Below, piece after piece: positions 999 to 1,803 of a stretch of DNA of 49,420 bases. Both the position numbers and the translations under genes were made by a program. Numbering within the stretch: the stretch's first letter is position 1; every line of letters starts with the position of its first letter. The notes under the pieces were generated by a model. That model saw nothing but the letters and a program-made list of their open reading frames with translations, searched no databases and had not been told where the DNA came from. Origin of the DNA: Candidatus Moraniibacteriota bacterium (lineage in GTDB: Bacteria > Patescibacteriota > Minisyncoccia > Moranbacterales > GCA-2747515); contig CP175956.1 of the NCBI GenBank assembly GCA_046116545.1, positions 1,236,912 to 1,286,331 of the forward strand. The letters are read 5' to 3'.

Positions 999-1141
999 TA
1001 TAATATTGTTGTTTTACAAATTCTCAATTGAGAATATTATATATAAGAAATTGTAACGATTGCATTTGCTCAAATCCGCTGTGGAACCGAGTATGAACCA
1101 TGCAATCAGGAAACCCGTAAACTCCAAATTATGGAGGATTT

Positions 1142-1219
1142 ATGAACAGGCTTCGAGAACCAACTGGTGAAGGACTTCGACCAGTAGGTGGTAACATCTT
1201 TGATCCCACGCGCCCATAA
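1142..1219 (+). CDS. Putative 25-aa peptide MNRLREPTGEGLRPVGGNIFDPTRP
   Basis: GGAGG at 1133-1137 just before the ATG; internal LR(E)PxG repeat; no recognised homology. Confidence 0.35.
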   Translation: MNRLREPTGEGLRPVGGNIFDPTRP

Positions 1220-1331
1220 TCCATCAAGCAGTGTTGGAATGGCGAATTGCGACGATTGCGAACCTGATGGCTCAGGCTTTGTTAACCCTGTTACCGCTAA
1301 CATCTAAAATGATGTGCTGTAAGGAAATAAA

Positions 1332-1355
1332 ATGCAAAGACGATTTATTCTTTGA
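1332..1355 (+). CDS. Minigene MQRRFIL*
   Basis: TAAGGA SD at 1320-1325; near-identical minigene at 1628-1648. Confidence 0.45.
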   Translation: MQRRFIL

Positions 1356-1409
1356 GGGAAATACTTTTGTGTTTAGAGTAAAGTGACTCACACTAGTTTA
1401 ATGCCCTCG
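1339..1409 (+). repeat. 71-nt element, copy 1 (minigene tail plus hairpin)
   Basis: Ungapped alignment to 1632-1702 with near-identical ends (GACGATTTATTCTTTrAGGGAAAT ... TTAATGCCCTCG) and compensatory changes in the middle. Confidence 0.8.
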
Positions 1410-1463
1410 ACATTAACTTTTTGTCCAAAATAAACTCAAAAAATATAAAGGAGAATATTGCTT

Positions 1464-1598
1464 ATGAATGTCATACGACCACCGACTAGTCTATTTTTTC
1501 ACAGCTATTCGGGTAACGACACACTTGCTGCTAATATCTCCGTAGCCGAAAACAATGCCCAGCGATCTTCCATGGAAAAGGGCCTCTTCAACCATTAA
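1464..1598 (+). CDS. Putative 44-aa peptide MNVIRPPTSLFFHSYSGNDTLAANISVAENNAQRSSMEKGLFNH
   Basis: AAGGAG at 1448-1453; lies between the two repeat elements; no recognised homology. Confidence 0.35.
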   Translation: MNVIRPPTSLFFHSYSGNDTLAANISVAENNAQRSSMEKGLFNH

Positions 1599-1627
1599 TC
1601 TCCGTTCTGACCAATTCTGAGGTAATT

Positions 1628-1648
1628 ATGCGACGATTTATTCTTTAA
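1628..1648 (+). CDS. Minigene MRRFIL*
   Basis: GAGGT SD at 1619-1623; ATG CGA CGA TTT ATT CTT TAA. Confidence 0.45.
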   Translation: MRRFIL

Positions 1649-1702
1649 GGGAAATGTTATTATGTCTATTGTGAAATGATTCATAGTGATTTAATGCCCT
1701 CG
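1632..1702 (+). repeat. 71-nt element, copy 2
   Basis: See 1339-1409. Confidence 0.8.
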
Positions 1703-1747: not shown

Positions 1748-1803
1748 GCCCCCAATATGTAACTTTTGTAATAAAAAGCATATTCGGGGGCTTTTTATTT
1801 TTT
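1748..1803 (+). terminator. Intrinsic terminator closing the small-ORF cassette
   Basis: GCCCCC-AATATG pairs with CATATT-C-GGGGGC, followed by a T tract. Confidence 0.7.

Follow-up and report, generated by a model that had tools for sequence, protein, structure and literature searches.

What could be the role of a short element that occurs twice in a single intergenic gap, each time made of a minute ORF and of a hairpin into which this ORF runs? The question is raised by the genome of a Candidatus Moraniibacteriota bacterium (hereafter G000), a single contig of 1.29 Mb, from which we analysed a window of 49,420 nucleotides (G000:C1:1236912-1286331). All coordinates given below for G000 are positions in this window. 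A first-pass annotation of the window had described the element as a duplicated mini-gene with its stop codon at the base of a stem, and had proposed that it is either a translation-coupled RNA switch or the source of a hexapeptide effector. We assessed these proposals by analysing the sequence of the repeat, its distribution among genomes, its predicted structure, and the genes that surround it.

A duplicated module between proS and dnaB

The repeat lies in the gap of 1,160 nt that separates proS (minus strand, start at 772) from dnaB (plus strand, start at 1935). The annotation had reported two ungapped elements of 71 nt, placed 293 nt apart in unrelated surroundings, and this description holds: positions 1339-1409 and 1632-1702 are identical at 56 of 71 sites without a gap, and the flanks of the two copies show 23-27% identity at the same offset. 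When the intergenic gap was shuffled (n=100), the best 71-nt self-match reached 42/71, against 56/71 in the real sequence. These are the only two copies in the genome, and both are within one transcription unit.

Read base by base, each copy has its own SD and ATG, as the annotation had claimed. In copy 1, the SD TAAGGA (1320-1325, plus strand) stands 6 nt ahead of the start of a mini-ORF (1332-1355, plus strand; ATG CAA AGA CGA TTT ATT CTT, encoding MQRRFIL, with the stop TGA at 1353-1355), which begins 24 nt past the stop of the preceding frame (1305-1307) and has one extra in-frame codon (CAA) relative to the other copies. In copy 2, the SD GAGGT (1619-1623, plus strand), identical in the related genome G005, precedes a mini-ORF (1628-1648, plus strand; ATG CGA CGA TTT ATT CTT, encoding MRRFIL, with the stop TAA at 1646-1648) that begins 29 nt past the stop of a small gene, ORF-B. 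The Arg codons are AGA-CGA and CGA-CGA, respectively, and in both copies the stop codon leads directly into a hairpin stem, (G)AGGG/CCCU(C), again in agreement with the annotation. The hairpin of copy 1 (1354-1408, plus strand; 103.7 bits with the covariance model R1 described below) is made of an outer helix P1 (GAGGG/CCCUC), the internal loops AAAU and UUUAAUG, an inner helix P2 (ACU..UGUG/CACA..AGU) and the apical sequence GUAAAGUG. The hairpin of copy 2 (1648-1700, plus strand; 100.7 bits) has the P1 AGGG/CCCU, the same two loops and a P2 of 9 bp. Both have the support of covariation, and that of copy 1 also of folding.

A related pattern was observed at 1248-1276, where TGCGACGATT, a 10-mer that also opens mini-ORF 2, precedes TTG CGA CGA TTG CGA ACC TGA, which leads into the mini-hairpin CCTGATGGCTCAGG. 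The latter (CCUGA-UGGC-UCAGG, 1263-1276, plus strand) is within a block of 16 nt that is identical in G005. The stretch may be a third, degenerate, mini-ORF with its hairpin.

Distribution of the module

Few genomes carry the module. BLAST over 60 relatives retrieved only G005, a genome of the same genus, with the match in the syntenic proS-dnaB gap. The annotation had suggested building a covariance model and searching for it more widely; our model (R1), made from three copies, was applied to each of the 319 genomes of the order and retrieved G281, which belongs to a different family of this order (42 bits). The rebuilt model (R2) added two copies: one at an allelic locus of G281 (C117, 67 bits) and a weak one (25 bits) in G002, a genome of the same genus as G000, again in the syntenic proS-dnaB gap. 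The order-wide search of 319 genomes thus gave six copies in total, spread over four species that represent two independent lineages, i.e., two families of one order.

Other searches returned little else. There was no Rfam 15 family at the gathering threshold in the whole window, in line with the statement of the annotation that the motif was not recognised, and relaxing the E-value up to 10 gave only noise between 780 and 1940 (miRNA models, and ROSE_2 with 14 bits against a threshold of 65). No tRNA or tmRNA was found. Strict pattern scans matched only the source organism itself among 241 M metagenome records, and only G005 and G281, besides chance matches, among all GTDB species genomes. 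A looser pattern scan of genome contigs gave about 119 chance matches, and G005 alone survived filtering with the covariance model. Class-level samples (2 x 400 genomes) searched with the model produced false positives only, and searches in phages and plasmids gave no match. We rejected a match lying inside an ORF of 158 aa (L183), another overlapping the end of a gene on the opposite strand (G118), and a partial one inside a GIY-YIG gene (L003).

The sequences also document the loss of the whole unit that carries the module. Three genomes of the same genus (G010, G001 and G003) have short gaps from which it is deleted, and in two of them (G001 and G003, loci L151 and L152, respectively) a scar of this deletion can be seen at about 1300-1345 of these loci, where only the 3' half of the terminator of the unit is left between proS and dnaB. 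On the basis of these comparisons, the unit is ancestral to part of the genus and accessory, and it is dispensable since these three genomes have deleted it.

In G281, two versions of the locus can be compared. This bin (8% contamination) contains the allelic versions C9, with a single ORF of 44 aa without Cys, and C117, with three peptide ORFs (37 aa, 9 aa with the sequence MKARSPPWK, and 40 aa) and CxC motifs. A block of 150 nt including the end of the ORF, the spacer, the mini-ORF and the hairpin is 95% identical between the two alleles, against 89-94% for the flanking genes, and there is no homology between their peptide cores or between their terminator regions. The module is therefore the best conserved part of the locus.

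A covarying hairpin on the plus strand

All six copies can form a hairpin of about 53 nt, in which P1 pairs (A/G)GGG with CCC(U/C). The internal loops are asymmetric: the 5' loop, AAAU, is invariant in the six copies, and the 3' loop reads U(U/C)UAA(U/G/C)G. There is a resemblance to the UAA/GAN-type internal-loop motif (GAA opposite UAA). P2 has 7-11 bp across copies, with sequences that are unrelated between them, and is capped by an apical loop with an AAAGUG-like motif.

Covariation was assessed on the four best copies (both of those in G000, G005 and G281-C9), aligned with the model. In this four-copy alignment, 94% of the cells are paired, 7 of the 13 pairs have changes on both sides, and the covariation score was reached in none of 500 shuffles; sliding the pairing partners by 1-3 columns left only 38-56% of the cells paired. 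The first-pass annotation had pointed out compensatory differences between the copies of G000 (UGUG/CACA versus UAUG/CAUA, and ACU/AGU versus GUU/GAU). These are indeed present, and they were recovered by RNAalifold in a MAFFT alignment built independently of the model, which gave the same helices and compensatory changes in 7 of 12 pairs. In thermodynamic terms the hairpin is unremarkable (z about -1.1), and its support thus comes from covariation, not from stability. G-U pairs occur at several positions, and folding of the minus strand is poor; these observations, together with the promoter-like site and the terminator of the unit described below, lead us to assign the structure to the plus-strand RNA. 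We regard this structured RNA element as very probably real.

The hairpin has no U-tract. RNAalifold and a duplex search found no conserved alternative pairing partner for it, and a search for long-range duplexes with the freed 3' arm revealed only trivial CCC/GGG pairing with the terminator. A coding repeat was rejected, as none of the other frames through the hairpin is free of stops in all copies.

The covariation also bears on the possibility that the module acts as DNA, being a recombination anchor, an attC-like site, or the remnant of a MITE that swaps peptide cassettes. Such an element would fit the conserved island between non-homologous segments in the alleles of G281, the tandem duplication with different peptide genes in G000, and the mosaic ORFs of G000 and G005. 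Yet, several of the pairs are G-U wobbles, which would turn into mismatches in DNA and on the opposite strand. The copy number per genome is only two, there are no matches in phages or plasmids, and we found no integrase or transposase nearby, nor terminal repeats, target duplications, or R''/R' (GTTRRRY) boxes. This makes a DNA-level role hard to credit. Among its specific forms, an integron attC site was rejected given that the RYYYAAC...GTTRRRY boxes are absent, that there is no integrase in the neighbourhood and that the G-U pairs favour RNA, and a dispersed repeat of the MITE or REP type was rejected given that there are two copies in one unit and six in 319 genomes.

The accessory unit and its peptide genes

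The module is part of an accessory unit of about 0.4-0.8 kb that has its own promoter-like site, leader, and terminator. In G000, the promoter-like site (TTTACA-16-TATTAT, 1013-1040, plus strand) was identified by a consensus scan with 10/12 matches, and its equivalent in G002 is TTGTCA-17-TATAAT. The leader contains a hairpin (1058-1107, plus strand) that is supported by folding and by pairing kept with changed bases in G005 (GAUUGCAU/AUGCAAUC versus GUUACAU/AUGUAAC), and that could be regulatory. The first SD of the unit, GGAGG (1133-1137), can pair with CUCCA (1122-1126). The unit ends with a strong intrinsic terminator predicted by folding (GCCCCCAAUAUG...CAUAUUCGGGGGC followed by a U-run, 1748-1803, plus strand), which has orthologs in G005 and G002. 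The G+C content of the unit is about 45-50%, versus about 30% in the surrounding region of the genome, i.e., it is richer by 15-20 points. Two other sequences stand out in the gap. The AT-rich stretch between proS and the promoter of the unit contains a perfect inverted repeat of 14+14 nt (TTTAGGTGTATCTT / AAGATACACCTAAA, 932-961), and a perfect palindrome of 28 nt (GTAGAGACGCGATTAATCGCGTCTCTAC, 1894-1921), lies 13 nt ahead of the start of dnaB. G005 keeps this palindrome, and G001 and G003 have it with an insert. It resembles an operator or some other site regulating dnaB, which also has its own promoter-like site.

The peptide genes of the unit evolve fast. ORF-A (MNRLREPTGEGLRPVGGNIFDPTRP and stop; SD GGAGG; 1142-1219, plus strand) is a paralogue of the other peptide genes starting with xRxP(P). 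This ORF (MNRLREPT...TRP, end at 1219) and the one ending with CDDCEPDGSGFVNPVTANI and a stop (end at 1307, with the PDGSG block) are in different frames. G005 unites the N-terminal motif and PDGSG, the latter at the end of the ORF, in a single ORF of 41 aa, which is why the region 1142-1307 of G000 looks frameshifted relative to G005; two other public assemblies show no difference from this sequence. ORF-B (44 aa, MNVIRPPTSLFFHSY...MEKGLFNH, 1464-1598, plus strand) is an orphan that is annotated as a gene in public assemblies, where it is 100% identical and hence uninformative. Its N-terminus matches the second ORF of G005 and its C-terminus the third, so that the peptide ORFs are mosaic between these genomes. 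The peptides upstream of the module share only an N-terminal motif, x-R-x-P-P or GKAPPGK, and their N-termini carry strong polyproline motifs (IRPP, IRPPP, KAPPGK, RSPPW; APPG and PPW in G281). Two word-index searches, a profile search of 1.84 billion proteins, Pfam and NCBIfam returned no homologs of the peptides besides the loci themselves. Similarly, the GKAPPGK motif was found across the order only at the G281 loci, and small ORFs with an RxPP start were found in the G000 genome only in this unit.

The position of the module relative to these genes is constant. It is found from -1 to 30 nt past the stop of a small ORF in every copy, and in five of the six it is followed by 25-150 nt of non-conserved sequence and then by the terminator. 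Only copy 1 of G000 has another small ORF, ORF-B, downstream. This arrangement is difficult to reconcile with a leader-peptide attenuator or a switch sensing a drug or Arg-tRNA, in which a stalled ribosome would control ORF-B (copy 1) or dnaB (copy 2); the attenuator and the Arg-tRNA sensor had been proposed in the annotation. It is true that the SD, the short ORF and the stop at the base of a hairpin reproduce the anatomy of trpL, ermCL and msrDL, that ORF-B follows copy 1, and that CGA makes up 7 of the 10 Arg codons in the ORFs of the unit (1142-1648), versus about 13% for long ORFs across the window. However, a hairpin devoid of U-tract, followed in 5/6 copies only by a spacer and a separate canonical terminator, and devoid of conserved antiterminator pairing, lends no support to an attenuator of a downstream gene. 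A sensor based on CGA is not supported either, given the conservation of one Arg only, encoded by CGT in G281 and by CGC in G002. Finally, the unit of G281 does not adjoin dnaB, and in G000 this gene has a promoter-like site and a palindrome of its own. We thus find this family of explanations quite improbable.

Conservation of the mini-ORF

Is the mini-ORF translated? In G005 it starts with ATG GGA CGA TTT ATC ACC CAA and extends over 13 codons (MGRFITQGKCHYL, starting with MGRFIT), with the stop within the apical loop. In G281-C9 it reads ATG TGG CGT ATC AGT ATT and TAG (MWRISI), and in G281-C117 it differs only by the last codon, ACT, before the same stop (MWRIST). In G002 it reads ATG CGC TAT TTA AGG GAA ATA TTT (MRYLREIF), with the stop TGA in the 5' arm of P2. 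The ATG is kept in the six copies, 10-21 nt ahead of the hairpin, and the SD in five of them; in the sixth (G002), the start is fused instead to the stop of the preceding gene (TAATG), the spacer has 8 nt less, and the mini-ORF is in a different frame. An Arg is found within codons 2-4 in all copies, with the synonymous codons CGA, CGT and CGC, another synonymous difference opposes ATT to ATC, and the sole indel has 3 nt and preserves the frame. The stop is exactly at the base of P1 in four of the six copies (TGA, TAA, TAG and TAG). In G005, it is replaced at this place by CAA and the ORF enters the loop. The 15 nt between the ATG and P1 have diverged, with 9/15 positions identical between lineages.

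Translation is favoured by these observations: an ATG in 6/6 copies, an SD in 5/6 and coupling in the other, synonymous changes in the Arg and ATT/ATC codons, an indel of 3 nt, and stops at the base of P1. They suggest that the start of the mini-ORF is probably used, with the proviso that conservation concerns six copies from two independent lineages, and hence few events. Beyond Met-(x)-Arg and hydrophobic residues, neither the length nor the frame nor the sequence of the mini-peptide is conserved. What the six copies share is a predicted termination at the hairpin or within its 5' half. In G002, where only 12 nt separate P1 from the stop of the peptide gene upstream, the ribosome of that gene would also end at the hairpin. 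The sequestration of the SD by the ends of the upstream ORFs is predicted for some copies, but it is inconsistent among them and was rejected. The translation-coupled RNA of the first-pass annotation is thus upheld in one part, since the coupling to a mini-ORF is predicted to be kept across two families with three different stop codons, and not in another, since the frame or the stop is lost in G002 and G005. The same applies to the loss of ATG, SD or frame among homologs, which the annotation had expected to speak against its reading: the ATG is never lost, whereas G002 and G005 lose the SD, the frame or the stop.

Could the peptide itself be the product of interest? Macrolide-resistance pentapeptides are cis-acting peptides of the ribosome tunnel, and the fMet-x-Arg-hydrophobic hexapeptide might similarly act in the tunnel in cis, or as a signal, with the hairpin merely boosting its reiterative synthesis. 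Reiterative translation occurs with ORFs of 2-8 codons (PMC6495379), a range that includes the 6-7 codons of four of the six copies; the SD is strong, and the pattern of Met-(x)-Arg with hydrophobic residues recurs (MRRFIL, MGRFIT, MWRISI, MRYL). The drift of the mini-ORF goes in the opposite direction, with 13 codons in G005, 8 codons in another frame in G002, and a change of the last residue from I to T between the alleles of G281. Furthermore, there are no modifying or export genes nearby and no ThiF/MccB homolog in the genome. The defined hexapeptide effector put forward in the annotation is therefore very unlikely, as its length, frame and sequence are not kept among the six copies. A bolder variant would be a peptide system of CPR bacteria, in which a ribosome parked by the hairpin makes such hexapeptides reiteratively. 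The hexapeptides might, for instance, bind the tunnel in cis, or the parked ribosome might itself sense how many ribosomes are available; either would act on translation together with the hypervariable polyproline peptides. The mini-gene would then be among the smallest conserved genes known, but we see this variant as a long shot. We also rejected a bypass of the T4 gene 60 type: there is a CUU landing codon after copies 1 and 2, there is no matching AUU or ACU near the hairpins of G281, and the stop is absent in G005.

A proposed ribosome-gated hairpin at the 3' end of peptide genes

We tentatively propose, with a probability of roughly 40%, that the module is a translation-gated 3' element that would couple the fate of the peptide mRNA to ribosome traffic. 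The module would have two parts on the plus strand, a ribosome entry point (SD or TAATG, with the ATG) and, 10-21 nt downstream, the hairpin. A ribosome fresh from the peptide gene, or bound at the SD of the module, would translate 6-13 codons and terminate at the foot of the hairpin or inside its 5' arm. By standard footprint geometry, a ribosome at termination protects about 12-15 nt beyond the A site, and an initiating one reaches about +15. Because of this footprint, the ribosome at the stop would have to melt P1, the AAAU loop, and most of the 5' arm of P2. Initiation would be compatible with the folded hairpin, given that P1 begins at +21, except in G002, where the ATG is 12 nt from P1 and initiation would therefore need the hairpin to be opened beforehand by the upstream ribosome. 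In untranslated RNA the hairpin would fold, and its conserved loops, likely the binding or cleavage site of a putative factor, would be presented only when ribosomes are absent. The stability, the 3' processing or the partner binding of the peptide mRNA would in this way be tied to its translation.

Several observations count against gating, namely the lack of a stop at the base of P1 in G005, the shifted frame in G002, and the ordinary stability of the hairpin. In addition, no regulated output, alternative pairing partner or binding factor was identified at the loci examined. The main alternative is that the hairpin is bound or processed by a factor acting in trans (a protein, an RNase or an RNA), and that it might stabilise the 3' end of the peptide mRNAs or direct their intercistronic processing. 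The mini-ORF would then be incidental, or would only keep the spacer translated, with no gating role. The unpaired AAAU, UYUAANG and apical AAAGUG-like loop are the most conserved parts of a hairpin whose stem varies freely, the frame, length and peptide of the mini-ORF are not kept in G002 and G005, and the module precedes the terminator as would an element of the 3' UTR. Nevertheless, an incidental mini-ORF would hardly retain the ATG, and either the SD or the coupling, in all six copies in spite of the divergence of the sequence between the ATG and P1, nor would it be expected to show three stop codons at one position and an indel that preserves the frame. No candidate binding partner was identified for this alternative either, and we think it unlikely, although deserving of more attention than those discussed above.

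If ribosome gating is confirmed, it would provide a compact and experimentally tractable RNA structure that ribosomes control where genes end, and not in their 5' leaders. To our knowledge, almost nothing is known on post-transcriptional control or on small peptides in CPR/Patescibacteria. The module also marks a small hypervariable locus of orphan peptides, with conserved ends and swapped cores, that could serve signalling, toxin or interaction functions in these episymbionts. The scope of these results is that of a dispensable unit present in only four species.

Comparison with known systems

The attenuator leaders trpL and hisL have a short ORF that ends at the foot of the first hairpin, and the folding of their RNA depends on the position of the ribosome. 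The module differs from them by having one Arg instead of a run of regulatory codons, and by lacking the alternative 2:3 and 3:4 hairpins and a downstream biosynthetic operon. The stabiliser hairpins of the REP type, or those of the puf and pap operons, are placed past a short gene and ahead of the next gene or of a terminator. The module resembles them in that its hairpin is duplicated behind successive cistrons, but we know of no such hairpin with a dedicated SD-ATG mini-ORF or with conserved asymmetric internal loops.

The stalling leaders are close in anatomy. In msrDL (MYLIFM), a ribosome held at the stop of an ORF of 6 codons blocks the formation of a hairpin (bioRxiv 10.1101/2021.11.29.470318). 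As in msrDL and ermCL, the module has a hexapeptide ORF with its stop just ahead of a hairpin, whose folding would be prevented by a ribosome at the stop. The combination of an SD and a short ORF abutting a hairpin, typical of these leaders, is predicted in most copies (ATG in 6/6, SD in 5/6, stop at the base of P1 in 4/6). Their regulated downstream gene and alternative hairpins are missing, since 5/6 copies are followed by a spacer and a terminator, and the module also lacks a resistance or other gene after it, a U-tract terminator, and a conserved arrest motif of the +x+ or IFVI type.

In mccA, the gene of the microcin C precursor, ribosome binding to an ORF of 7 codons controls the adjacent hairpin and stabilises the RNA (PMC4231749). 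Like mccA, the module combines a strong SD with an ORF of about 7 codons and, immediately past the stop, a hairpin. Unlike in mccA, this hairpin is not an intrinsic terminator, and the module is placed 3' of other peptide genes instead of heading a biosynthetic operon. The peptides differ too, as those of the module have no strictly kept length and no C-terminal Asn (they end with L, L, L, I, T and F). The genomic context is also distinct: the gene neighbours are proS and dnaB, and a search for the ThiF-like adenylyltransferase MccB gave no PF00899 match in the 1.29-Mb genome (controls matched in 12 of 14 genomes). Overall, the module is rare and previously undescribed. Its presumed principle, a short translated ORF abutting a hairpin, is known, and what sets it apart is its placement at the 3' ends of genes, not in a 5' leader.
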